Assembly: GCA_050950285.1 (NCBI GenBank)
Contig: JBMNHG010000002.1
Span: forward strand, 436,296-500,295
DNA: 64,000 nucleotides
Direction: 5' to 3'
Origin: Kiritimatiellia bacterium
GTDB lineage: Bacteria; Verrucomicrobiota; Kiritimatiellia; RFP12; JBMNHG01
Part shown: positions 8,743 through 44,236 of the stretch, piece by piece
Layout: each line of letters starts with the position of its first letter
How positions within the stretch are numbered: the stretch's first letter is position 1
Program-made: the position numbers and the translations under genes
Notes under the pieces: model-generated
The model's input: only the letters and a program-made list of their open reading frames with translations
Databases searched by the model: none
What the model was told of the DNA's origin: nothing

Positions 8743-9266
8743 CCCGTCCAACCGTCACCTTCGTCTTCGGCGGCGCCCGTAGCGGCAAGAGTTCCTTCGC
8801 CGAACAACTCGCCGTCGAACGCTTCCGGCATCCGCTCTATCTCGCCACCGCCCAGCCCGTCGATGCCGAGATGGGCGACCGTATCGCGCGGCACCGCGCC
8901 CGGCGCGGCGACGCCTGGGGCTGTCGCGAGGAGCCGCTCGACCTCGCCCATGCCCTCGCAACCGGCGACCCCGCATGCGACGGCGTGCTGCTCGAATGCC
9001 TTGGCACCTGGCTGGGCAACGTGCTCCACCACGAAGGCGAAGCGGCCTGGCCCGCCCGTCGCGACGCCCTCCTCGCCGCCCTGCGCGCCCCCGCGCGAAG
9101 CGTGGTGCTCGTCGGAAACGAGACGGGCATGGGGATCGTCCCCGCCACGCCGCTGGGCCGCCGGTTCCGCGATCTGAACGGATGGCTGAACCAGGCGGTC
9201 GCCGCCCTCGCGGACGAAGTGGTCTTCCTCGCCGCAGGCCTCCCTCTCTGGCTCAAACGCCCGTAG
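8739..9266 (+). CDS. cobU: Bifunctional adenosylcobinamide kinase / adenosylcobinamide-phosphate guanylyltransferase
   Basis: GGARSGKS P-loop, YLATA, RIARHR, NETGMGIVP, RFRDLNG, AGLPL. Confidence 0.93.
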   Translation: MTRPTVTFVFGGARSGKSSFAEQLAVERFRHPLYLATAQPVDAEMGDRIARHRARRGDAWGCREEPLDLAHALATGDPACDGVLLECLGTWLGNVLHHEGEAAWPARRDALLAALRAPARSVVLVGNETGMGIVPATPLGRRFRDLNGWLNQAVAALADEVVFLAAGLPLWLKRP

Positions 9267-9318
9267 CGCCCGCCCGCCCGCCCCTCCCTCACATCCATTC
9301 CCGACAGGAAACCCCGCC

Positions 9319-11409
9319 ATGCAAATCGATTCCTATTTCCGACAGGTCTACGCCGCCGTCCTCGGCAAGGTGATCGGCGTCTACATGGGACGCCCCTTCG
9401 AAGGATGGACTCGCGACGCGATCGAAGCGCGCTGGGGCGAAGTCACCCGCTACCTCCACGCAGACCAGAAGGTCCCGCTCGTGGTCGCGGACGACGACAT
9501 CTCGGGCACCTTCACCTTCGTTCGAGCCCTCGAGGATTCGGGCCTCTACGCGGACACTCCCCAGGAGTTCTTCGGCGAAACGTGGCTCAACTATCTCATC
9601 GACCGCCGCACCATCCTCTGGTGGGGCGGCATGGGATGCTCCACCGAACACACCGCGTTCATCCGCCTCCGGCAAGGCGTCAAGCCCCCGCGCTCCGGCT
9701 CGCGTGCGTTGAACGGCCGCGTGGTGTCGGAGCAGATCGGCGCGCAGATCTTCATCGACGCCTTCGGGATGGTCGCTCCCGGCAACCCCCGGCTCGCGAT
9801 GGACCTCGCGGAAAAAGCGGCGCGCGTCTCGCATGACGGCGAAGCCGTCGTCGCCGCGAAGGCCGTCGCCGCCATGGTCTCCCTCGCCTTCGTCGAAAAG
9901 GACATCCACACCATCCTCGACCGCGTGGCGGAGCTGATTCCCGCCGATTCGCTCGTCGCCCGCGTCCATCGCGACGTGCGCGGCTGGGCGCGCGAGGATC
10001 GCGACTGGCGCAAGACCCATGACCGCATCGTCGCGACCTACGGCTACGACCGCTTCGGCGGCGGATGCCACGTGATCCCGAACCATGCGGTGATGGTCCT
10101 GGCGTGGGCATATGCGGGGAACGACTTCTTCGAAGCACAGAAAATCGTCAACACCGCAGGCTGGGACACCGACTGCAACGCCGGCAACGTCGGCACCGTC
10201 TGTGGCTTGATCGCCGGCATCGACCGCCTGGACGAACGCTATCCCTTCCATGCGCACCCCGAGTTCCACGACCGGATGGTGCTGCCCACCGCCGATGGCA
10301 CGGATTCCGTGACGGATTGCCTGCAAGTCGCCCGACACATCGCCCGGATCGGGTGCCGGGTCTCCGGCATCCCCCTCCCTCCCGAACTCGTCCGCACGGC
10401 GTGGCACGACTTCTCCCTCCCGGGCGCCCTGCACGGCTACCAGCCGCTCGACGGCCGCACGACGGTCACCCATTCGCCTCTCTCCGGCGGATCCGCATGC
10501 ATCGCCTTCCGAGCCTCCCCCGGCCACCCCGCCCGCGTCGCGACGCCCATCCTCCACGCCGCCCTGGGCCAAACCGGCTACGCCTGCGTCTCTACGCCCG
10601 TCCTCTGCCACGGGATGGAGGTTGTCGCCGAGGTCGCCTGCGACGAACTCTCCACGCCGGACGTCCACATCGCGCTCCGTGCGCTCTGCGGAATGGCGGA
10701 CGACGCCCCCGCCACCCTCTATTCGTCGGAGCCTGTACGGCTGTGCGCTGGCGGGACGGCACGCCTCCGCTGGACGATCGACACCGACTTCCACCCCGTC
10801 GACATGCTCGAAATCGCCCTGCTGTCCGACACCGGATGCGACGGCACGGTGCGCCTCGTCCAAGTCGAAGCGAAAGGAACCGCGAAGGTCAAGGTGGGAT
10901 TCGACGACTTCCTCGCGAACGGCGCCGTCGAACGCACGCCGGGATGGATTGCCACGGCGGGCGTCCTCGCGGACGCTGCGCGGAAGACCTTCCGCATCGA
11001 CGAAGGCTTCGGATGCCTCGTCACCGGACACCGCGGATGGAAGAAGGTCCGTTCGTCCGCGACGCTGCGCACGCACTGCTCCGATCGCGCAGGGCTCGTC
11101 GTGGGCTATCAGGGACTTCGCCGCCATGTCTCCGTGGCGATCGTCCGCGGACGCCTCCAAGTCGCCCGGAATGCCTACGGCGAGGATATCCTGTTCGATC
11201 ACGCCGCAGGCATCGAAGAGGACACCCCGTTCCATCTGGACGTGGAGGCGGAGGAAGGCGTCGTGCGCGTCCGTCTCGATGGCGGCGAGCCCATCGAAAT
11301 CCGCGATCCCGGCATCCACGCGGGCGGCGCGGGCCTGTGCGTCGAAACCGGCAGCGTCGAGCTTCTGGGAGAACTCACGATCACGGCGGAGACCGCCGCA
11401 CTGCCGTGA
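9319..11409 (+). CDS. ADP-ribosylglycohydrolase family protein, long form with C-terminal beta-rich extension
   Basis: GKVIGVYMGRPFEGW, ADDDI, IGAQIFID, HVIPN, GWDTDCNAGNVG. Confidence 0.88.
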   Translation: MQIDSYFRQVYAAVLGKVIGVYMGRPFEGWTRDAIEARWGEVTRYLHADQKVPLVVADDDISGTFTFVRALEDSGLYADTPQEFFGETWLNYLIDRRTILWWGGMGCSTEHTAFIRLRQGVKPPRSGSRALNGRVVSEQIGAQIFIDAFGMVAPGNPRLAMDLAEKAARVSHDGEAVVAAKAVAAMVSLAFVEKDIHTILDRVAELIPADSLVARVHRDVRGWAREDRDWRKTHDRIVATYGYDRFGGGCHVIPNHAVMVLAWAYAGNDFFEAQKIVNTAGWDTDCNAGNVGTVCGLIAGIDRLDERYPFHAHPEFHDRMVLPTADGTDSVTDCLQVARHIARIGCRVSGIPLPPELVRTAWHDFSLPGALHGYQPLDGRTTVTHSPLSGGSACIAFRASPGHPARVATPILHAALGQTGYACVSTPVLCHGMEVVAEVACDELSTPDVHIALRALCGMADDAPATLYSSEPVRLCAGGTARLRWTIDTDFHPVDMLEIALLSDTGCDGTVRLVQVEAKGTAKVKVGFDDFLANGAVERTPGWIATAGVLADAARKTFRIDEGFGCLVTGHRGWKKVRSSATLRTHCSDRAGLVVGYQGLRRHVSVAIVRGRLQVARNAYGEDILFDHAAGIEEDTPFHLDVEAEEGVVRVRLDGGEPIEIRDPGIHAGGAGLCVETGSVELLGELTITAETAALP

Positions 11410-32723: not shown

Positions 32724-32894
32724 CGCGGTCCGATTTATTTCCTGGCTTGAGGTTATCTGTGTAAGCGATACACTTTTTTGCAACCATCACGATCCACCAG
32801 CCCCCGCCCCGAACCGATGCACGATCGTGCGGGATGGAGACCGGAGACCGTGGGTGGCATTCCGTGGCGTCCGTTCGTATCCAGGAGAAATCCC

Positions 32895-35800
32895 ATGTCC
32901 CATCGATCCGTTTCCCGTGCGCTTGCGGCATCTGCCGCGGGCCTCTTCCTCCTCTGTGCATCCGCGCATGCCGACGTCGTGATGTCGGGCCCGTTGCCCC
33001 AGGGCTACTGGAGCAACCTGCTCCATCTTGGGGCCACCTTCGAGACGGACTCGCTCACGGCCAACAACCAGAATATCTACACCGACTGCCTTGCCGCGGC
33101 AGGCGGGGAGGCGAACCAGACGCCGGGCCATGGCGATGTGCTCACGGGCCTTGCCACCCACGGGGATTCCCAGGAGCCCGCCGGCCAGCTCACGTGGACC
33201 GCGATGGACGACGCCGATGGCTTCTGGCAGCCCAATCGCGATGCATACATCAAGTATTGGCACACCTACGTCATCGTGCCCGGCAACCAGCCGCGCCCCG
33301 TCCACTTCTACCTGCGCCAGGATGACGACGTCCGCATCTGGAACAACGGCTCGAACATCGTCACCAGCATCGGCTGGGACAACCACACCGAGAAAGGCCC
33401 CTTCGCCGCGACGCTCCAGCCCGGTCGCAATTCCATCACCATCAAGCTCTACGAAGGCGGTGGCGGCGACTACATGGCCATACGCATGACCGATGTGGAC
33501 GGGACCTATTTCGACGACCTCTCCTACACGCTTGTCCCGGTCGACTTCACCGTCGCCAACCCCCTGAACGGCGGCGAGACCTACACCGGGACCAACGCGG
33601 TCGTGGCGGTTGTCTTCCCGATGGTGGCCGACGGGACCCACTACCAGTTTACGGCGGGCGATGACGCCTCCCTGCTGTCCCCGGCCGCCTGGAAGCCCTA
33701 TGCGATCGGCGCAATGCCGGACGACATCTTCGATTTCCCCGCCCCGGACGATGGCGCGACCGTCACCATCGGCGCCTGGGTGATGGGAAACGGCTTCACC
33801 AACGGCTACTCCGACACCATCCTCTACTCGACGTCGCGCCCCTCGGCCGTGGCCACGAACATCTCCATCGGCATCAACAACGCCGATGGAACCGAAATCC
33901 CGGTCTCCCTCGTTGACGCCGGTTCCACGGGCGGCGACAGCGGCATCGCCTCCATGACGGTCTCCCCCTCCATCCTCTACGCCCCCGGCAACGTCACGCT
34001 GACCGTGGTCAATCACGCCGGCCTTTCCGACAGCGCGACCGTCATGGTCTCCCAATCCGGCCTTCTGGCGGTCCATGTTTCCCCCGATGGCGACGACGAC
34101 ACCGCCGACGGATCGCCCGAAAAGCCCTTCCGCACCGTCACGGAGGCGGCGGCGCGCGTCGCCCCCACCCCGCTCGAGGCGATCTACATCGCCCCCGGCC
34201 TCTACGACGCGGACGCCGGCGAATCCTTCCCGGTCGCCCTGAAGGACACCCGGATCGTGAACAGCGGCGCCGGGCCCGCCATCTTCGACGGCGGCAACGC
34301 CGCAGCCCACATCTTCACCGCCGTCGAAGGCTCGCTCTCGCTCCTCAACCTCGCCTTCCGCGGTTCGACCGACGCCGCCCTCTCCGTGCGCACCACGCCC
34401 GTCGCCGCGACCAATTGCGTCTTCACGCAGTCCCAGCCCAACTTCGGATGGGGCGCGACCGGCGCGCTGCGCCTGGAACGGAACTGCGCGCTCGAGGCGG
34501 TCGGATGCGTCTTCACCAACATCAGCCGCACCGCCGTGATCCGCTGCACCGACATCAACGGCGCAAACGAGCACAACGGAAGCCCCGTGACGCTTCGCGA
34601 CTGCCTGCTCGCGGACAACGTGGCGGGAGCCGCCGGCGGCGCCAACGACTCGAGCCTGATCTACACGCGCAACCGCGGCTCCTCCTTCTCGTTCTACGAC
34701 ACCGTCTTCCGGAACAACGAAACCGGCATCGGCACCGTCCACGACGCGTCGTCCTCGCCCGTCGTCTATGCGGACTTCTCGCCCGTCGACATCGACCGCT
34801 GCCAGTTCCTCGGCAACCGCGGCGGCAACCTCCTCGGCGTCTGCTACGCGAACGCGAGCATCCGCAACTCGCTCTTCGTGGACAACGACAACCCCGACAA
34901 CATCTACCACGGCTACAGCACCTCCGCCGACTTCCGCAACTGCACCTTCGTGCGCGGCACCGGCGGCTTCACCGGGTATACCGCGACCGCCAACCTCTTC
35001 AACTGCATCCTCGCGGACCTCGTCTCGCTCAACGTCCCTTCGACCAACCACGGCGGAAGCCCCGACCGCCTCCGGATCCGCGACACCCTGATCTGGAACA
35101 CCCCCGCCGGAATCGGATACGACGCCCATTCCAGCGCGAACATCATCGAAGCCGATCCCGTGCTCGAAAACGCCGGCGTCGCCTTCTCCGATGCCGGCTT
35201 CGACCCCCGCCCGCGCCCCTACTCCCCCGCCATCGACGCCTCCGCCGCCGAGAACGTCGCCGGCGCCTTCGACCTCGATGGCCACGCGCGCGCCGCCGAC
35301 AACGACGGCGATGCCCTGGCCGTCGCCGACCTGGGCTGCTACGAATCGCTCTTCCACGCCGCGATCGTACCGACCTTCTCCGTCCCCGTCCCCGGTTCGC
35401 TCAGCGGCTACCGCGGCGTGACCTATCCCGTCACCATCGGGATCTCCCCTGCGGCGGAAGGCCCGGTCGAGGCCGCCGTCACCTATTCCGAAGGCGTGAC
35501 CGGCCCCGCCGCCCTCTCCTTCTCGAACGGCTCCGCCACGGTGGTCCTCAACGTGGAAACGCTCGGCTCCACCAACACCTTCGCGCGCATCACGATTGCC
35601 GAGAGCAACACCTCGCAAGGCGTTCTGCCGGGCATCCTCGATGTCTTCATGGACGACCTGGTCGTAACGGTCGGCGGCGAGACGAACCTCTTCGTCCGCG
35701 CCGGCGACTCCCTCGACCTGCCCGTCGCGCTTGCGCTCGGCGGCGCCGTTGCGCCAGACGACGTCTCCATCAACGTCGGCGCCATCCAGGGCACAGGCAC

Positions 35801-37301
35801 CTCGGCCGCCGCCTGGCACGGAGAGTCCGCCAAGATTCCCGCCGGCCAACACAGTTCGGCCCCGGACGCCCTCCGCATCACCGGCGGCATCGGCATCAAT
35901 GCCGTCACCCTTTCCACCGGCACCGCCCTCTTCCTCGAGAGCGGCGACTCGGAAGTGACCCTCCGCATCGTCGGCTACCCCGGCTGCCTGTATGTCGATC
36001 CCGCCAACGGCGACGACTCCGCGGACGGCACCCTCGCGTCGCCGCTGAAGAGCGTGACCAAGGCCATCACGCTCCTCAAGGCAGGCGACGAAGTCCGCCT
36101 GCTCCCCGGCACCTACACGGCCGCCACCGAGACCTTCCCCTGGCGGCCCGGATCCCTCGCGCTCGTCGGCTGCGACGCCACCGGCGCCAAGACCGCCGAC
36201 CGCACGCTCTGCGTGGTCGATGGCGAGAACGGCGTCGACCACCTCGCGAACGTCCTCCAGTCCACCGGTTCCGCCGCCGGGCGCATCGAAGGCCTCTGGA
36301 TCCGCAACTCCACCGATTCGGGCCTCTTCATCGAGAACTCCGACTGTGTCGTGAGCAACTGCTTCTTCACGCAGGACACGGCCTCCAACGTGGGCGGAGG
36401 AATCCGCGTCGCCAACGTGAGCCAGGCGGACGTCGTCGACTGCTGCTTCAGCGGGATGACCCGCCGAGCCGCGATCTACTGCACCGCCGTGGACAACGCG
36501 GAGTACAAGCGCCTCTCCGCGCTGCGCTGCCTCTTCATCGACAACACCAGCTATCTCGGCGCCATCGGCTGCACCGAAGGCAACCAGTTCCGCCTCTATG
36601 CCACGGATTGCGACTTCATCCGCAACGTGGGCGACCTGGATACAAACGTCCACGACGCCAGGGCCTCCGCCGCCTTCTACAACGGCGGGAACCGCCTCTT
36701 CGTCGACCGCTGCCGCTTCCTCGCCAACAGCGGCAACCACGTGGTCGGCATCGAATACGCCCAGGAAAACGTCCTCATCGCAAACTCGCTCTTCGTCGAC
36801 AACGCGACCGCCGGCGGCGCCTTCCGCGGCTACAGCGCCACCATCGACGCCCGCAACTGCACCTTCATCCGCAACGCCGGCGGCTATGCCATCTACGGAC
36901 TCAGCACCTACATCCGCAACAGCATCTTCTCCGGCGACACGGCGCTGTCCCTGGATGACGGGTCCGCCGGACGCCTGCGCCTGCGCGATTCGATGGTCCA
37001 CGAAATCGGCGAAGGCGATTTCGGATACGTCGTCGAGGCCCCCGGCACCGTTGCCACCAATGCCGCTCCGCTCTTCAGGAACGCGGCCATCGCCTGGGAT
37101 GCCGAAGGCTTCAACGCCCGCCTCGGCAACGACAGCCCCGCGATCGACGCCGGAAACGCCGATTTCATCTTCGGCGACCTCGACCTCGACGGCACGGCCC
37201 GCATGAAATACGGCCGCACCCGGCGCTTCGGCCTCAAGGTCGATCTCGGCTGCTACGAAGCGGACGTTCCGCCCTTCGGCACGCTCCTGCTCGTGCGATA
37301 G
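32895..37301 (+). CDS. 1468-aa secreted protein: PA14-like domain plus two DUF1565/right-handed beta-helix modules, ending in GTLLLVR
   Basis: AGGAG RBS, signal peptide (..ASAHA-D), QDDDVRIWNNG..YEGGGG (PA14-like); HVSPDGDD..DGSPEKPFRT and YVDPANGDD..DGTLASPLKS; two SPAIDA..DLDG..DLGCYE ends. Confidence 0.85.
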   Translation: MSHRSVSRALAASAAGLFLLCASAHADVVMSGPLPQGYWSNLLHLGATFETDSLTANNQNIYTDCLAAAGGEANQTPGHGDVLTGLATHGDSQEPAGQLTWTAMDDADGFWQPNRDAYIKYWHTYVIVPGNQPRPVHFYLRQDDDVRIWNNGSNIVTSIGWDNHTEKGPFAATLQPGRNSITIKLYEGGGGDYMAIRMTDVDGTYFDDLSYTLVPVDFTVANPLNGGETYTGTNAVVAVVFPMVADGTHYQFTAGDDASLLSPAAWKPYAIGAMPDDIFDFPAPDDGATVTIGAWVMGNGFTNGYSDTILYSTSRPSAVATNISIGINNADGTEIPVSLVDAGSTGGDSGIASMTVSPSILYAPGNVTLTVVNHAGLSDSATVMVSQSGLLAVHVSPDGDDDTADGSPEKPFRTVTEAAARVAPTPLEAIYIAPGLYDADAGESFPVALKDTRIVNSGAGPAIFDGGNAAAHIFTAVEGSLSLLNLAFRGSTDAALSVRTTPVAATNCVFTQSQPNFGWGATGALRLERNCALEAVGCVFTNISRTAVIRCTDINGANEHNGSPVTLRDCLLADNVAGAAGGANDSSLIYTRNRGSSFSFYDTVFRNNETGIGTVHDASSSPVVYADFSPVDIDRCQFLGNRGGNLLGVCYANASIRNSLFVDNDNPDNIYHGYSTSADFRNCTFVRGTGGFTGYTATANLFNCILADLVSLNVPSTNHGGSPDRLRIRDTLIWNTPAGIGYDAHSSANIIEADPVLENAGVAFSDAGFDPRPRPYSPAIDASAAENVAGAFDLDGHARAADNDGDALAVADLGCYESLFHAAIVPTFSVPVPGSLSGYRGVTYPVTIGISPAAEGPVEAAVTYSEGVTGPAALSFSNGSATVVLNVETLGSTNTFARITIAESNTSQGVLPGILDVFMDDLVVTVGGETNLFVRAGDSLDLPVALALGGAVAPDDVSINVGAIQGTGTSAAAWHGESAKIPAGQHSSAPDALRITGGIGINAVTLSTGTALFLESGDSEVTLRIVGYPGCLYVDPANGDDSADGTLASPLKSVTKAITLLKAGDEVRLLPGTYTAATETFPWRPGSLALVGCDATGAKTADRTLCVVDGENGVDHLANVLQSTGSAAGRIEGLWIRNSTDSGLFIENSDCVVSNCFFTQDTASNVGGGIRVANVSQADVVDCCFSGMTRRAAIYCTAVDNAEYKRLSALRCLFIDNTSYLGAIGCTEGNQFRLYATDCDFIRNVGDLDTNVHDARASAAFYNGGNRLFVDRCRFLANSGNHVVGIEYAQENVLIANSLFVDNATAGGAFRGYSATIDARNCTFIRNAGGYAIYGLSTYIRNSIFSGDTALSLDDGSAGRLRLRDSMVHEIGEGDFGYVVEAPGTVATNAAPLFRNAAIAWDAEGFNARLGNDSPAIDAGNADFIFGDLDLDGTARMKYGRTRRFGLKVDLGCYEADVPPFGTLLLVR

Positions 37302-37353
37302 CCATCCGCCTTCCGCGACGGAAACGGCGCGCCGCGAAAAAAGCGGCGCGCCG
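37278..37353 (+). repeat. 76-bp direct repeat copy 2
   Basis: See 32447-32522. Confidence 0.95.
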
Positions 37354-37362
37354 TTTTTTTTT
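37322..37362 (+). terminator. Intrinsic terminator
   Basis: Stem AAACGGCGCGCCGC / GCGGCGCGCCGTTT, loop GAAAAAA, with a T9 tail (37354-37362). Confidence 0.85.
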
Positions 37363-37380
37363 CCCGCGAACGGGGCGCTC

Positions 37381-37431
37381 GCAAAACCCGGCCCGCCGGG
37401 GACGGCGGTCCCCAGGGCAAGGGGTTTTGCA
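37381..37431 (+). repeat. REP-like element bounded by GCAAAAC...GTTTTGC
   Basis: Contains the GGGGACGGCGGTCCCC hairpin; matches the reverse complement of 4763-4810. Confidence 0.8.
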
Positions 37432-37482
37432 CGCGCCCGCGAATTCTCCGGCGCTTTTCCCTTCCGTGCCGGGCGGTGGGCT

Positions 37483-37491
37483 TGCTATACT
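37483..37491 (+). promoter_or_regulatory. Putative extended -10 (TG-C-TATACT) for the accDA operon
   Basis: Near-consensus motif about 100 nt upstream of ATG 37589. Confidence 0.5.
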
Positions 37492-37588
37492 ATCGGGATA
37501 CGACATTCCTGCCACGGGCGCCTTCCCTCCCAAGTTCCGGCGCATGGCGATGCAGGTTGATGAACGTTCCCGTGAAATAAGGTTTCCC

Positions 37589-39277
37589 ATGGCCTGGTTG
37601 AAAAGTACGAGCAAAAGTCTGAACGTCCGGCAGGAATCGGACGTGTGGGTTGTCTGCCCGAAGTGCAAGGCGTACGTCGGCAGGGAGACGTGGAAGGCTT
37701 CGCTTCCCCTGTGCCCGCGTTGCGGCGCGCCGCAACGCATCGGGTGCCGCGAGCGTGTGGCGCAGATCGCCGACAAGGGGACCTTCTCCGAGATCCACGC
37801 GTCGGTCGCCGCGGCCGATCCGCTGCGCTTCGAGTCCGCAGGCGTAAAATACGTCGACAAGATTGCCGAGACGAAGGCCAAGACCGGCCTGGACGAGGCG
37901 ATTCTCACCGGGACGGCGGCAATCTGCGGCCACCCGGTGGTCCTCGGCGTGATGGACTTCCGGTTCTTCGGCGGAAGCCTTGGAAGCGGGACGGGCGAGC
38001 GCATCGTCCTCGCGGTGGACGAGGCGGTCCGGCTGGGCCGTCCGCTGGTTCTCTTCTGCGCCTCCGGCGGCGCGCGCATGCACGAAGGCATCGTTTCGCT
38101 GCTGCAGATGGCGCGCACGAATGCGGCCATCGCCAAACTCCACGAGGCCGGGCTCCCCTACATCGCCGTCCTGACCGACCCGACGACGGGAGGGGTTTCC
38201 GCCAGCTTCGCCACCGTCGGCGACCTGGTGATTGCCGAGCCTCGCTCCCTCATCGGCTTCGCGGGACGCCGCGTCATCGAGAACACGATCCGCCAGAAGC
38301 TGCCGGACGATTTCCAGACGGCGGAGTACCTCCGGGAGCACGGCTTCCTCGATTCGATCGTCGCCCGCGCCGACCTGCGCGATTGGCTCGGCAAGGCGCT
38401 CTCCTATTTCCGTCCCGTGCAGGCTCCCGCCGACCTCCCCGCGCCCGCGATGCCGAAGAAGCCTCGGGGGAAAGGGACGAAGGCGACCGCCTGGGAAACC
38501 GTCCAGCTCGCCCGCAACAAAGACCGTCCGACGATTCGCGACTACATCGAGCTCGCCTGCGACGACTTCGTCGAGCTTCATGGCGACCGTCTCTGCGGGG
38601 ACGACCCCGCGCTCATCGGAGGATTCGCCACCATCGGCGGAATCCGCGTGATGCTCTTCGGCCACCTCAAAGGCCGCACGATGGAGGAGAACCTCGCCTC
38701 GAACTTCGGCATGGCCAATCCCGAGGGATACCGCAAGGCGATGCGCCTGATGCGCCTGGCGGAATTCTTCCGCCTGCCGGTGGTCAGCCTCGTCGACACT
38801 CCCGGCGCCTATCCGGGGCTGGAGGCGGAGGCCCGGGGGCAGGCCGAGGCCATCGCCCGCAACCTTTGCGTGATGGCGCGGCTGAAGACGCCGTTTGTCG
38901 CCGTGATTACCGGCGAAGGCGGCAGCGGCGGCGCCCTTGGCGTAGCCGTGGGCGACCGGGTGATGATGCTCCAGAACGCGGTGTACTCCGTGATCTCCCC
39001 CGAAGGGTGCGCATCGATTCTCTGGCGCGACGGGAGCAAGGCGGCCGAGGCGGCCGAGGCGCTCAAGATCACCTCCGGCTCCTTGCTGGAACTCGGGGTG
39101 GTCGATTCCGTGATTCCCGAACCCGCCGGCGGGGCCCACACCGACAAGCCCGCCACCGCCGCGAACGTCCGCGACGCCGTCTGCGCCGCCCTTCGCGACC
39201 TCCTCACGATCCCCCCGGACGAACTCGTCGAACGGCGCCATGCCAAGCTCATGGCGGTCGGCCGAATCCCCCGGTAG
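37589..39277 (+). CDS. accD-accA: Fused acetyl-CoA carboxyltransferase beta+alpha subunits (AccD-AccA)
   Basis: WVVCPKC..CPRC Zn finger, FFGGSLG, SGGARMHEG, PTTGGVSASFA, IGFAGRRVI (AccD); VQLAR..RP, ELHGDR, FGMANPEGYRKA, DTPGAYPG, GEGGSGGAL, YSVISPEGCASILW (AccA). Confidence 0.93.
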   Translation: MAWLKSTSKSLNVRQESDVWVVCPKCKAYVGRETWKASLPLCPRCGAPQRIGCRERVAQIADKGTFSEIHASVAAADPLRFESAGVKYVDKIAETKAKTGLDEAILTGTAAICGHPVVLGVMDFRFFGGSLGSGTGERIVLAVDEAVRLGRPLVLFCASGGARMHEGIVSLLQMARTNAAIAKLHEAGLPYIAVLTDPTTGGVSASFATVGDLVIAEPRSLIGFAGRRVIENTIRQKLPDDFQTAEYLREHGFLDSIVARADLRDWLGKALSYFRPVQAPADLPAPAMPKKPRGKGTKATAWETVQLARNKDRPTIRDYIELACDDFVELHGDRLCGDDPALIGGFATIGGIRVMLFGHLKGRTMEENLASNFGMANPEGYRKAMRLMRLAEFFRLPVVSLVDTPGAYPGLEAEARGQAEAIARNLCVMARLKTPFVAVITGEGGSGGALGVAVGDRVMMLQNAVYSVISPEGCASILWRDGSKAAEAAEALKITSGSLLELGVVDSVIPEPAGGAHTDKPATAANVRDAVCAALRDLLTIPPDELVERRHAKLMAVGRIPR

Positions 39278-39289
39278 GCGGCCCTTCCC

Positions 39290-40981
39290 ATGAAAAAACC
39301 AACGATACGCATAACGGACACGACGCTTCGCGACGCACACCAATCGCTTTGGGCGACACGGATGCGCACGGAGGACATTCTCCCGATTCTCGACGCGATC
39401 GACGCCGCCGGATACTATTCGCTCGAATGCTGGGGCGGCGCGACCTTCGACGTTTGCCTGCGCTTCCTCCGCGAAGACCCCTGGGAGCGCCTGCGCCAGA
39501 TCAAGGCGCGCTGCAAGACGCCCCTCCAGATGCTGCTCCGCGGCCAGAACATCCTCGGCTACAAGCACTATCCCGACGACGTCCTCCGCCGCTTCATCGA
39601 ACTCGCCGCCCGGAACGGCGTCGACATCTTCCGCATCTTCGACGCGCTCAACGACACCCGCAACCTCGAATCCGCCATCCGCATCGTGAAGGAGGTGGGG
39701 GCGCACGCCCAGGGCACCATCAGCTACACCTTCAGCCCGGTGCACACCGGCGCCGCCTACGTGAAGCTCGCCCGGGAGCTGGAGCAGCTCGGATCGGATT
39801 CCCTCTGCATCAAGGACATGGCCGGCATCCTCTCCCCCGGGGTCGCGGGGAAGCTCGTCGGCGCCATCCGGAAGGAGGTCTCCATCCCCGTCCAACTCCA
39901 CGGGCACATGACGAGCGGCATGGCCGTCGCCACCTACCTCGAAGCCGTGCGTTCCGGCGCCGAGGCCGTCGACGCCTGCGTCGCGTCGATCTCCGGATGT
40001 TCGTCGCAACCCCCCATCCGCACGCTCGAAGCCGTCTTCGCCTCCTACGGGTTCGACACGGGGCTCGACCTCGACGCCGTGACGAAGGTGGACGACTATT
40101 TCCGGAAGCTCCGCCCGCGACGCGAGCCGACCTCGTCGTCGACGCAGTTTGTCGACGCCGGCGTGCTCCGCCACCACATCCCGGGCGGCATGATTTCCAA
40201 CCTCCGCAGCCAGCTCCAGGAACAAGGCGCGCTGGATCGCCTCGACGAGGTCCTCGAAGAGCTCCCGAAGGTGCGCGCCGACATGGGCTACCCCCCGCTG
40301 GTCACCCCCACCAGCCAGATCGTCGGCATCCAGTCGGTGTTGAACGTGCTGGGCGGGAAACGGTACGGCATGGTGACGGAAGAGACCCGCCGCTACGTTC
40401 AGGGATACTACGGACGCCCTCCCGCGCCCGTGGCGAAGGACGTCGCCCGGAAGGTCCTGCAAGGCGGGAAGCCCATCGGCTGCCGTCCCGCGGACCTTCT
40501 GGAGCCTGGCCTGGAAGACGCCGCATCGCGTCTCGATCCCCGGCTCGTGCGGTCGGAGGAGGACATCCTGTCCTTCTGCCTCTTCCCCGAAGTGGCCCAA
40601 GGCTACTTCGAGTGGCGGGCGCTTCCCGAGGGCAAACGCCCGCCGATCCCCGCCGACGAAGAACGAAACGCCGCGCCGCAGCAGCCCGCCGCCGCCGCGC
40701 CCGCGGCGGCCCGCCCGCCAGAAGCTCCGGCGGATGCGCCGGTTTCCGGCGACATCCTCCGCGCGCCGCTCAACGGCACCTTCTACCGGCGTCCCGGCGC
40801 CGGGAAGGAGGAATATGTCCAGGAAGGCGACGACGTCCCGGCCGGAGCGAAGATCTGCGCGGTCGAAGCGATGAAGCTCCTGAACGACATCGTCGCCCCG
40901 CGTCCCTGCACCATCGTGAAATTCCTGGTACGGCACGGCGATTCCGTTGTCAAAGGCCAGCCCCTGGTCGCCTTCCGCTAG
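39290..40981 (+). CDS. Pyruvate/oxaloacetate carboxyltransferase (PycB/OadA/5S-like) fused to an AccB-type biotin carboxyl carrier domain
   Basis: TLRDAHQS, ECWGGATFD, MLLRGQN, IKDMAG, HGH, LVTPTSQIVG; Ala/Pro linker; APLNGTFYRRP...VEAMKL. Confidence 0.9.
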   Translation: MKKPTIRITDTTLRDAHQSLWATRMRTEDILPILDAIDAAGYYSLECWGGATFDVCLRFLREDPWERLRQIKARCKTPLQMLLRGQNILGYKHYPDDVLRRFIELAARNGVDIFRIFDALNDTRNLESAIRIVKEVGAHAQGTISYTFSPVHTGAAYVKLARELEQLGSDSLCIKDMAGILSPGVAGKLVGAIRKEVSIPVQLHGHMTSGMAVATYLEAVRSGAEAVDACVASISGCSSQPPIRTLEAVFASYGFDTGLDLDAVTKVDDYFRKLRPRREPTSSSTQFVDAGVLRHHIPGGMISNLRSQLQEQGALDRLDEVLEELPKVRADMGYPPLVTPTSQIVGIQSVLNVLGGKRYGMVTEETRRYVQGYYGRPPAPVAKDVARKVLQGGKPIGCRPADLLEPGLEDAASRLDPRLVRSEEDILSFCLFPEVAQGYFEWRALPEGKRPPIPADEERNAAPQQPAAAAPAAARPPEAPADAPVSGDILRAPLNGTFYRRPGAGKEEYVQEGDDVPAGAKICAVEAMKLLNDIVAPRPCTIVKFLVRHGDSVVKGQPLVAFR

Positions 40982-41068
40982 CGGGGACTCCGCCGGCCGG
41001 GGCCATCCCGCTCTCCGTCGAATGGCACGGTATCCGCTACTGGGGGAATGAAAGAAAGGGGGTTTGTC

Positions 41069-41686
41069 ATGACCATTCTGTTCCAAGGCGATTCGATTAC
41101 GGACTGCGGGCGTCGCGTGAGCGGCGGCGAAGGCTACGAAGTCGGCGAAATGGGCCCCGGCTACCCCGGCCTCATCAAATCCCGGCTCTCGTGCGACCAT
41201 CCCAACCGCGACTTCACCTTCCTCAACCGCGCCATCAGCGGCAACCGCATCGTGGATCTCTACGCGCGCTGGCGTTGCGATGCCATCAACCTCCGCCCCG
41301 ACCTTCTTTCCATCCTCATCGGCGTGAACGACAGCTGGCACGAGGCGAGCGGGAACGGCGTGGAAGTGCCGCGCGCGGAGCGCATCTACCGGGAACTCCT
41401 CGCATGGACCAAGGAGAAGCTCCCGCAGGTTCGCCTGGTGCTCATCGAGCCGTTCACGGGGCCCTTTGCCGCCGGTGCCCCGCTGGCCGGGGAGGTCGCC
41501 CTGCGAGCGGCCTTCACCCGCCGCCTCGCGGAGGAGTTCGGCGCGGTGTTCATCCCGATGCAGTCGATCTTCGATGCCGCCTTCCGGCACTCGAAGCCCG
41601 AGCACTGGATGGTGGACGGCGTACACCTTACGCCGGCCGGGCACCAGTTGCTTGCGGACGCCTGGCTCGACGCCGTGAAACTCTGA
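41069..41686 (+). CDS. SGNH/GDSL hydrolase
   Basis: FQGDSITD, ISGNR, IGVND, DGVH. Confidence 0.92.
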   Translation: MTILFQGDSITDCGRRVSGGEGYEVGEMGPGYPGLIKSRLSCDHPNRDFTFLNRAISGNRIVDLYARWRCDAINLRPDLLSILIGVNDSWHEASGNGVEVPRAERIYRELLAWTKEKLPQVRLVLIEPFTGPFAAGAPLAGEVALRAAFTRRLAEEFGAVFIPMQSIFDAAFRHSKPEHWMVDGVHLTPAGHQLLADAWLDAVKL

Positions 41687-43594: not shown

Positions 43595-44236
43595 CTATCG
43601 GAGGGCTTCCAGGCGGGCGACCAGCCGGGTGGCGACTTCGCGTTTGGACAGGAGCGGCCACGCCTCCGGGTCGCGGCCCGGGGCGAGCAGGGTCACGCGG
43701 TTGGTGTCCACCGCGAAGCCGGAGTCGGCGCGGGACACGTCGTTCGCCACGATGAGGTCAAGGCCCTTCGCGACGAGTTTTCGTGCGGCTTCGGGGAGGG
43801 GGTCGCCGGTTTCGGCGGCGAAGCCCACGAAGGTGCGCGAACCCTTCCGCGGCGCGAGGGTGGCGAGGATGTCCGGGTTGGGCGCCAGTTCGAGCGTCGC
43901 GGCCATCTCCCGTTTCTTGAGCTTGGCGGCGCACGTCTCGCGGGGGCGCCAGTCGGCGACAGCGGCGGTCATCACCAGCACGTCCGCGCCGGGGAGAAGC
44001 GCCTCCAGCGCCGCGAGCATGTCCCGTGCGCTCACCACGTCGGTGCGTCGCACGCCGGACGGGGTGGGAAGGGCGACGGGGCCCGCCACGAGTTCCACGG
44101 GATGCCCCCGTTCCGCCGCGGCCTCCGCGATGGCGAACCCCATCTTCCCCGTGGAGCGGTTGCTGAGGAACCGCACGGGATCGAGGAATTCGCGGGTGGG
44201 ACCGGCGGAGACCAGGAAGGAGAGTCGCTTCGGCAT
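43595..44236 (-). CDS. coaB: Phosphopantothenate-cysteine ligase (stand-alone CoaB domain)
   Basis: VSAGPTREFLDPVRFLSNRSTGKMG, AAVADW, PNPDIL, VGFAAET, DLIVANDV; no N-terminal CoaC flavoprotein. Confidence 0.9.
   Translation of the reverse strand: MPKRLSFLVSAGPTREFLDPVRFLSNRSTGKMGFAIAEAAAERGHPVELVAGPVALPTPSGVRRTDVVSARDMLAALEALLPGADVLVMTAAVADWRPRETCAAKLKKREMAATLELAPNPDILATLAPRKGSRTFVGFAAETGDPLPEAARKLVAKGLDLIVANDVSRADSGFAVDTNRVTLLAPGRDPEAWPLLSKREVATRLVARLEALR

Follow-up and report, generated by a model that had tools for sequence, protein, structure and literature searches.

A candidate ATP-independent oxaloacetate:acetyl-CoA transcarboxylase built from an AccD-AccA fusion and a carboxyltransferase-AccB fusion in Kiritimatiellia bacteria

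Among the closest described relatives of the system reported here are two transcarboxylases. The methylmalonyl-CoA:pyruvate transcarboxylase of Propionibacterium freudenreichii (EC 2.1.3.1) is composed of 12S, 5S and 1.3S subunits; its physiological substrate is methylmalonyl-CoA, and it accepts acetyl-CoA too. The single-chain ACCT/PycB enzyme of protists (Entamoeba, Giardia, Mastigamoeba, retortamonads and Monocercomonoides) is credited, in three papers, with the conversion of acetyl-CoA and oxaloacetate to malonyl-CoA (PMC8136499, PMC7985675, PMC12308965). Here we analyze a 64,000-nucleotide stretch of DNA (the window) from a bacterium of the class Kiritimatiellia, order RFP12 (assembly GCA_050950285.1, contig JBMNHG010000002.1, positions 436,296 to 500,295), which contains two adjacent genes. 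Gene 1 encodes a fused AccD-AccA carboxyltransferase, and Gene 2 encodes a carboxyltransferase fused to a biotin carrier of the AccB type. The two proteins probably constitute an ATP-independent, biotin-dependent transcarboxylase that replaces acetyl-CoA carboxylase (ACC) and converts oxaloacetate and acetyl-CoA to pyruvate and malonyl-CoA. A preliminary description of the locus had suggested this bypass of biotin carboxylase, and comparative searches support the suggestion. The observations behind it are the domain content of the two proteins, the AccB nature of the carrier, the absence from the genome of biotin carboxylase, of any other acyl-CoA carboxyltransferase and of any other AccB, and the conservation across the order.

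The two halves of the Gene 1 protein score above the curated cut-offs for accD (TIGR00515, residues 13-275, 322.6 bits, cut-off 317.45) and accA (TIGR00513, residues 300-560, 360.9 bits, cut-off 319.3), which agrees with the AccD-AccA fusion named in the preliminary description. The Pfam families ACCA and Carboxyl_trans also match. Residues 56-314 of Escherichia coli AccA align to Gene 1 without gaps, and AccD chains from the PDB were matched too. The AccA part begins at about position 56 of the accA model, and a linker stands in for the AccA N-terminus. The GGSLGS and GEGGSGGALG loops and the zinc-ribbon cysteines of CPKC and CPRC are all kept. When Gene 1 was compared to the PDB, the match to AccA had an E-value of 2.6e-87, whereas that to the transcarboxylase 12S subunit (1on3_A) reached only 2.6e-25. 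The start of Gene 1 is uncertain, as the frame is open further upstream (TTG at 37427, ATG at 37544); orthologues align from residue 1 of the start at position 37589.

The Gene 2 protein had been described as a carboxyltransferase barrel joined by an alanine/proline linker to a biotinyl domain, and all of the motifs were located: RDAHQS (residues 14-19), IKDMAG (174-179), HGH (204-206), the thumb GTFYRRPGAGKEEY (496-509) and EAMKL (526-530). Its score against the domain-type model NF006761, 'pyruvate carboxylase subunit B', is 742.1 bits, above the cut-off of 402. The scores against TIGR01108 for oadA (675.7 bits, cut-off 756.5) and NF008984 for the 5S subunit (526 bits, cut-off 827) are below the cut-offs, and Gene 2 is closer to PycB than to 5S. 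The PDB relatives of the carboxyltransferase domain are PycB (5ks8_C, E 1.5e-155), OadA (2nx9_A, 1.2e-141) and transcarboxylase 5S (1rqb_A, 3.5e-128).

The carrier domain of Gene 2 is of the AccB type and is not a PycB or OadA tail, as its thumb had indicated from the start. The last 93 residues align to the E. coli biotin carboxyl carrier protein (BCCP) without a gap, straight through the thumb, and the five best PDB matches of the tail are all BCCPs of ACC (E 1e-16 to 8e-13). The transcarboxylase 1.3S subunit (1dcz_A, 1.8e-6) and PycB (3e-4) align with the tail only past the thumb. The best family for the tail is TIGR00531, which is matched at model positions 55-153 only, with 74.5 bits, under the cut-off of 115.2. 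All nine fusion-clade loci of the genome_contigs sample have the thumb, and 14 OadB-adjacent tails have a seven-residue gap in its place; two further tails (L058, L077) align only past the thumb.

The source assembly has 4.05 Mb in 12 contigs and is 99.35% complete by markers but not closed. A genome-wide search with the accC model TIGR00514 matched only the two ATP-grasp halves of a 1104-residue CarB frame (E 3e-9), and the Biotin_carb_C domain (PF02785) had no match in the genome even at E<=1. Gene 1 is the sole PF01039 match, with no further acyl-CoA carboxyltransferase of this family in the genome. Five frames are matched by PF00364: the tail of Gene 2, an OadA on contig 8, two lipoyl domains and one HlyD-like frame. 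Thus the domains of biotin type are those of Gene 2 and of the contig 8 OadA only, and the stand-alone accB that was looked for, following the preliminary description, is absent from the genome, as is any other free-standing biotinyl protein. That description had also noted the lack of accC, pycA, oadB and oadG. All four are missing from the window, and accC and pycA from the whole genome; however, two oadB genes and one oadG are present on other contigs, beside a separate OadA or explained by it. The fabD gene (over its cut-off), BirA and a phosphoenolpyruvate (PEP) carboxykinase of the GTP type were found in the genome. Since there is no biotin carboxylase and no other AccB, the carboxybiotin for AccDA must come from oxaloacetate or, less directly, from a reversed OadB.

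The oadB genes occur as an OadA-OadB pair on contig 8 and an OadG-OadB pair on contig 3. The latter comprises OadB at 781897-782964 and, upstream, a 92-residue OadG (PF04277, 48.8 bits; L037:7892-9289 and 9220-9498, minus strand), with no alpha gene adjoining. The contig 8 pair has no adjoining OadG, so the OadG of contig 3 is explainable by the contig 8 enzyme. About 2 kb from the contig 8 OadB is a 1485-residue frame (L038:3697-8154, plus strand) with weak acyltransferase, polyketide synthase C-terminal and phosphopantetheinyl-transferase matches; it is also the second, sub-cut-off match to fabD.

The following course of the reaction is suggested by the domain content. Oxaloacetate would give up its carboxyl group at the carboxyltransferase domain of Gene 2 to the biotin that the AccB-type domain of the same protein carries, presumably on Lys529, and pyruvate would be released. 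The alanine/proline linker may let the carboxybiotin arm swing to the AccD-AccA protein, which would hand the carboxyl group to acetyl-CoA, and the resulting malonyl-CoA would be used by FabD in type II fatty-acid synthesis. Oxaloacetate could be supplied from PEP by the GTP-type PEP carboxykinase. The path from PEP through oxaloacetate to pyruvate would then replace the pyruvate-kinase step, and malonyl-CoA would be formed at no extra cost of ATP. The two decarboxylations are similar in free energy, which would place the exchange near equilibrium, with a constant near 1. We infer the reaction and its direction, the contact between the two proteins and the source of oxaloacetate from sequence comparisons.

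The absence of biotin carboxylase is shared by the whole order sample, which contained 121 genomes from 12 families and 39 genera, 78 of them of high quality (at least 90% complete). PF02785 was over its cut-off in none of the 121. Two of the genomes gave sub-cut-off matches (E 0.002-0.003) in frames of about 1250 residues, and the same search, used as a control, found the domain in 13 of 14 reference genomes. A match to Gene 2 is present in 118 genomes of the order and so is accA, and each is present in all 78 high-quality genomes. The three genomes without a Gene 2 match are 55, 74 and 79% complete, and the genomes missing either Gene 2 or accA are 55-87% complete. The conservation put forward for examination in the preliminary description is evident within the order. 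Two relatives, G137 and G155, keep biotin carboxylase together with the fusion, which qualifies the interpretation.

In a sample of 151 genomes of the phylum, accC was over the cut-off in 118. The 33 genomes without it are the source genome, all 15 genomes of the same order, G119 and G140, which belong to one family of the same class, all 14 genomes of genus g39, and G070, which has a sub-cut-off accC match. Orthologues of Gene 2 with 62-77% identity were found in the source genome, all 15 same-order genomes, G140, G119 and G137, and AccD/AccA is present in every genome of the phylum sample that has such an orthologue. A comparison of coordinates by hand placed the end of accA no more than about 200 bp upstream of the fusion gene in 34 of the 121 genomes sampled from the order. 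Outside the order, the sequence accD-accA-fusion is kept in G137, G140 and G119, and it recurs in six loci of metagenome-assembled genomes (L041-L045, L115) among the 80 genome_contigs loci; accC was not found in four of these six genomes (G151-G154), whose completeness is not given. In four close pairs from a genus without biotin carboxylase, the ratio of nonsynonymous to synonymous substitution rates (dN/dS) of the fusion gene is 0.04-0.06, while values of 0.18-0.26 from distant pairs were set aside because dS was near-saturated. The fusion gene is under strong purifying selection.

Genus g39 (family f28) is a separate case. All 14 of its sampled genomes lack accC, accA and accD, and they have a stand-alone 5S-like carboxyltransferase of about 507 residues, without a biotinyl tail and 45% identical to Gene 2 (e.g. 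L030:4101-5624, which is G084:C3). No 12S or 1.3S partner genes were found beside it.

The relatives of Gene 2 differ in their neighbors. Among the 80 loci around them, OadB adjoins in 47, biotin carboxylase in four and accD-accA in six. The OadB-adjacent homologues are OadA of the Firmicutes type, with about 50% identity to Gene 2. In an unrooted IQ-TREE quick tree of 71 of the 111 carboxyltransferase rows, the 27 rows of the AccB-fusion clade share a single starred branch with a Shimodaira-Hasegawa-like approximate likelihood ratio test (SH-aLRT) support of 99, the OadB-adjacent rows are outside it, and the biotin-carboxylase-adjacent rows form another branch (SH-aLRT 98). The tree omits 40 mostly Firmicutes rows, mostly OadB-adjacent, and L047, L103 and L115 were dropped as short or interrupted.

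Two genomes provide a view of how the system may have arisen. G137, which belongs to the same class, and G155 have kept biotin carboxylase, and their sole BCCP-family match is the tail of the fusion. The accC gene of G137 stands alone, with no adjoining accB, next to glutamate-mutase-like genes (L029, L039; the locus of G155 is L046). These genomes likely represent a shared-carrier intermediate, in which one carrier could serve biotin carboxylase, the pyruvate carboxyltransferase and AccDA. Their biotin carboxylase means that transcarboxylation cannot be diagnosed from the fusion alone; the diagnostic feature is the lack of biotin carboxylase. In G137, G131 and G140, the tail fits the BCCP model from one end to the other (positions 2-155 of 156, 96-109 bits), and therefore a complete AccB was fused. 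On balance, we favor a history in which the whole order (the 121 sampled genomes of 12 families) gave up ATP-dependent acetyl-CoA carboxylation for an obligate oxaloacetate:acetyl-CoA transcarboxylase in several steps. A complete AccB would have been fused to a PycB-type carboxyltransferase while biotin carboxylase was present, as in G137 and G155; biotin carboxylase would then have been lost, and the AccB N-terminal domain would have decayed in several lines. [quoted passage not shown]

Gene 2 orthologues differ by lineage in the segment that joins the carboxyltransferase to the biotinyl domain (families f2 and f4, e.g. L018 and L015, versus f5, f19 and f20, with L026, L028 and L029). Some orthologues have a full AccB N-terminal domain there and others an unrelated short segment with ...AKFAVIGKQF..., and the segment is deleted in the Gene 2 protein of the window and in G038.

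The carboxybiotin could be formed in another way, by an OadB-type subunit reversed on the sodium gradient or by an unrecognized ATP-grasp enzyme, in which case the pair would be an ACC and a pyruvate carboxylase sharing one carrier. Sodium-driven reversal of oxaloacetate decarboxylase is seen in vitro. The genome contains two OadB genes and one OadG, and in G137 and G155 the same fusion, as the only AccB, is paired with biotin carboxylase. However, no biotin carboxylase homologue is over the cut-off anywhere in the order sample, four genomes that have the fusion show no OadB match (G160, G158, G237 and G246), and most of the other genomes have a single OadB, which lies beside its own OadA paralogue. 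Furthermore, a direct carboxyl donor is already supplied through the carboxyltransferase domain of Gene 2. We consider this route of carboxylation unlikely.

Gene 2 might instead serve mainly as the alpha subunit of a sodium-pumping oxaloacetate decarboxylase, with the OadG-OadB pair of contig 3 as its partners and an incidental position next to accDA. The absence of an alpha gene beside that pair would fit such a role, as would the TIGR01108 score and the 48-53% identity of the Gene 2 carboxyltransferase to OadA-like genes that lie beside an OadB of the same type in G159 and G189. We regard the role as quite unlikely: the TIGR01108 score is under the cut-off, the tail is of the AccB type with a thumb that the 14 OadB-adjacent tails lack, the contig 3 OadG can be assigned to the contig 8 enzyme, and the fusion clade is apart from the OadB-adjacent rows in the tree. 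OadB was found in 116 genomes of a 121-genome sample of the order, mostly in a single copy, beside an OadA paralogue with 27-29% identity and not beside the fusion. The association of OadB with its own OadA paralogue and the persistence of the fusion where OadB is single or missing speak against Gene 2 as a pump subunit. As a candidate identity for Gene 2, OadA was ranked low on gene context and tail type.

The same complex might also run mainly in reverse, from malonyl-CoA and pyruvate to acetyl-CoA and oxaloacetate, for anaplerosis or the use of malonate. Transcarboxylations are freely reversible, and Gene 1 has weak matches to the malonate decarboxylase beta and gamma models (58 and 31 bits). 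These scores are far below the cut-offs of 278 and 237, fabD needs malonyl-CoA, and the genome has no other source of it, with neither biotin carboxylase nor another acyl-CoA carboxyltransferase, which makes a mainly reversed direction very unlikely. It is hardly credible that a normal accC and accB are merely missing from the 12-contig, unclosed assembly and that an ordinary ACC carboxyltransferase lies next to an ordinary PycB, given the 121 order genomes, 78 of them of high quality, without biotin carboxylase over the cut-off, the 118 of 151 phylum genomes in which the same type of search found accC, and the AccB thumb, which is not ordinary for a PycB.

The transfer of the carboxyl group from oxaloacetate to acetyl-CoA by the pair remains the reading that we prefer, and several points weigh against it. 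Gene 2 has lost the AccB N-terminal domain, as only model positions 55-153 are matched, and no scaffold is evident that would hold the Gene 1 and Gene 2 proteins together. The accA and fusion genes are not adjacent, or are on different contigs, in 85 of the 121 genomes from the order, and a further two genomes have them about 1.1 kb apart. The contig 8 OadA-OadB pump and the OadG-OadB pair of contig 3 are competitors for oxaloacetate, and carboxybiotin could in principle be contested as well. The absence of a gene from draft genomes is never absolute. Lastly, the fusion may have evolved as a carrier shared by pyruvate carboxylase and ACC and not for transcarboxylation.

The features of the locus are listed in Table 1. 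The gap between the two genes is exactly the 12 bp of the two-gene unit in the preliminary description, and the G+C content of the pair region, 66-69%, is like that of the adjoining DNA. None of 200 shuffles of the hairpin sequence at 37320-37362 was equally stable; the hairpin is followed by nine U's and was missed by the consensus scan. Because this strong terminator ends the upstream gene, the Gene 1-Gene 2 pair looks like its own transcription unit. The promoter of that unit is less clear: the -10-like hexamer that had been attributed to the pair is visible, but a consensus scan for two-hexamer sites gave no promoter-like site in 37250-41150. The three terminator-like sites that the consensus scan found in the same interval equal the shuffle expectation, and folding of the region 3' of Gene 2 is no more stable than that of shuffles (z +1.58).

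Table 1 Positions of the gene pair, its domains and the adjoining signals in the window.
Feature	Positions	Strand	Evidence
Terminator-like hairpin and U-run ending the upstream gene 32778-37301	37320..37362	+	Fold -32 kcal/mol, z -3.97
-10-like hexamer TATACT, weak evidence	37486..37491	+	By eye
Gene 1, fused AccD-AccA carboxyltransferase, 562 aa, acetyl-CoA/malonyl-CoA side	37589..39277	+	TIGR00515, TIGR00513, PDB alignments
AccD (beta) part, residues 13-275; Zn-ribbon CPKC 37655-37666, CPRC 37712-37723	37625..38413	+	TIGR00515; PDB 2f9y_B E 1.1e-70
AccA (alpha) part, residues 298-560	38480..39268	+	NF004344 397.4 bits; TIGR00513
Intergenic gap, 12 bp	39278..39289	+	Sequence
Gene 2, oxaloacetate/pyruvate carboxyltransferase fused to AccB-type biotin carrier, 563 aa	39290..40981	+	HMGL-like, PYC_OADA and Biotin_lipoyl domains
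Carboxyltransferase domain, residues 5-460; RDAHQS 39329-39346, IKDMAG 39809-39826, HGH 39899-39907	39302..40669	+	NF006761
Ala/Pro-rich linker, residues 461-489	40670..40756	+	Translation
AccB-type biotinyl domain, residues 490-561; thumb 40775-40816; presumed biotinyl-Lys529 40874-40876	40757..40972	+	PF00364, TIGR00531, BCCP alignment

In the metatranscriptome run X1, a fraction of 0.07 of the sampled words was found, and five contig pieces fall on the pair region. Over 39036-39319, two of them match the window without a difference; one of the two, from a contig of 151 nucleotides of the RNA library, bridges the gap between the genes, which is a weak hint only, as assembled contigs of X1 prove neither transcription nor a single transcript. 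The other three pieces are short parts of contigs of other organisms, and the rest of the pair region is without cover. Directly upstream of the pair, 32778-37301 (plus strand) encodes a secreted-looking protein of 1507 residues with long repeated blocks. Downstream, the 213-residue frame at 43595-44236 (minus strand) looks, on inspection by eye, like the CoaB (phosphopantothenate-cysteine ligase) part of CoA synthesis.

In the textbook view, bacterial fatty-acid synthesis begins universally with ACC and its biotin carboxylase, a step considered essential and regarded as a target for antibiotics. An order of bacteria without the ATP-using half would, if our reading is true, be a clear exception, and would show a saving of ATP by energy-limited anaerobes. 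Public annotations name Gene 2 'pyruvate carboxylase subunit B', 'oxaloacetate decarboxylase alpha subunit' or 'methylmalonyl-CoA carboxyltransferase', with which metabolic reconstructions of these bacteria would misstate both anaplerosis and lipid synthesis. For engineering, the gene pair could serve as a compact, naturally occurring module of two genes that leads to malonyl-CoA without ATP.

The protist enzyme has the same set of modules without biotin carboxylase and the same proposed reaction and role, but it is one polypeptide, whereas two proteins are encoded here. The primary papers on it are Jordan 2003 and Barbosa-Cabrera 2012. When longer relatives of Gene 1 were sought, about 40 single-chain proteins of 1142-1345 residues were obtained that contain AccD-AccA, a PycB carboxyltransferase and a biotinyl domain; Paratrimastix, Carpediemonas, Entamoeba marina, Aureococcus and Symbiodinium are among the sources named. 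In the 12 that were examined, identity to Gene 1 is 35-43% and identity to Gene 2 is 31-38%. Their AccD part is without the zinc-ribbon N-terminus, since the alignments begin at residues 60-73 of Gene 1 in ten of the 12 and later in two shorter ones. The tail is thumbless and pyruvate-carboxylase-like in 11 of them, in contrast to the thumb of Gene 2, and the twelfth (P0122) ends before the tail. In the unrooted quick tree, the protist carboxyltransferase domains have a starred clade of their own (SH-aLRT 100), apart from that of the bacterial fusions. The separate clade and the thumbless carrier point to an independent assembly of the two systems. Together with the state of G137 and G155, the protist clade provides a testable history of biotin enzymes rebuilt from modules. 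The bacterial two-protein version with its AccB carrier is a different build of a known kind of enzyme, and the reaction itself is not new. A literature search that reached few subscription journals and could not use phrases containing colons returned no paper on a bacterial AccDA + PycB::AccB system and, within the same limits, none on the loss of biotin carboxylase in Kiritimatiellia.

The E. coli-type heteromeric ACC (AccABCD, EC 6.4.1.2) has AccD and AccA that are orthologous to Gene 1 above curated cut-offs, and a carrier with the same AccB-type, thumb-bearing biotinyl domain; AccA, AccD and BCCP are all contained in PDB entry 8uxz. The Kiritimatiellia system differs from it in having no AccC, in the fusion of AccD to AccA, and in the position of AccB, which is fused behind a carboxyltransferase and is without its N-terminal domain. 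Ten metagenomic proteins of about 1005-1026 residues (P0090-P0099) combine biotin carboxylase, AccD and AccA in one chain, which is the opposite solution.

PycA/PycB (5ks8) and the OadA/B/G sodium pump (2nx9) are the closest structural relatives of the Gene 2 carboxyltransferase and share with it the carboxybiotin/pyruvate half-reaction. The partner of PycB and OadA is biotin carboxylase or OadB, which adjoin in four and 47 of the 80 loci, respectively, whereas the partner here is AccDA, and the tails of PycB and OadA are thumbless. A PycA partner is missing from the source genome, and a biotin carboxylase partner is present in the relatives G137 and G155. The Propionibacterium transcarboxylase resembles the candidate enzyme in shuttling a carboxyl group between a keto acid and an acyl-CoA via biotin and without ATP, and its 5S subunit is homologous to the Gene 2 carboxyltransferase (1rqb_A, 3.5e-128). 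The acyl-CoA side of the Propionibacterium enzyme is formed by a 12S hexamer of the PccB type and that of the Kiritimatiellia system by AccD-AccA, and the carrier, which in the former is the separate, thumbless 1.3S protein, is in the latter fused to the carboxyltransferase and of the AccB type.

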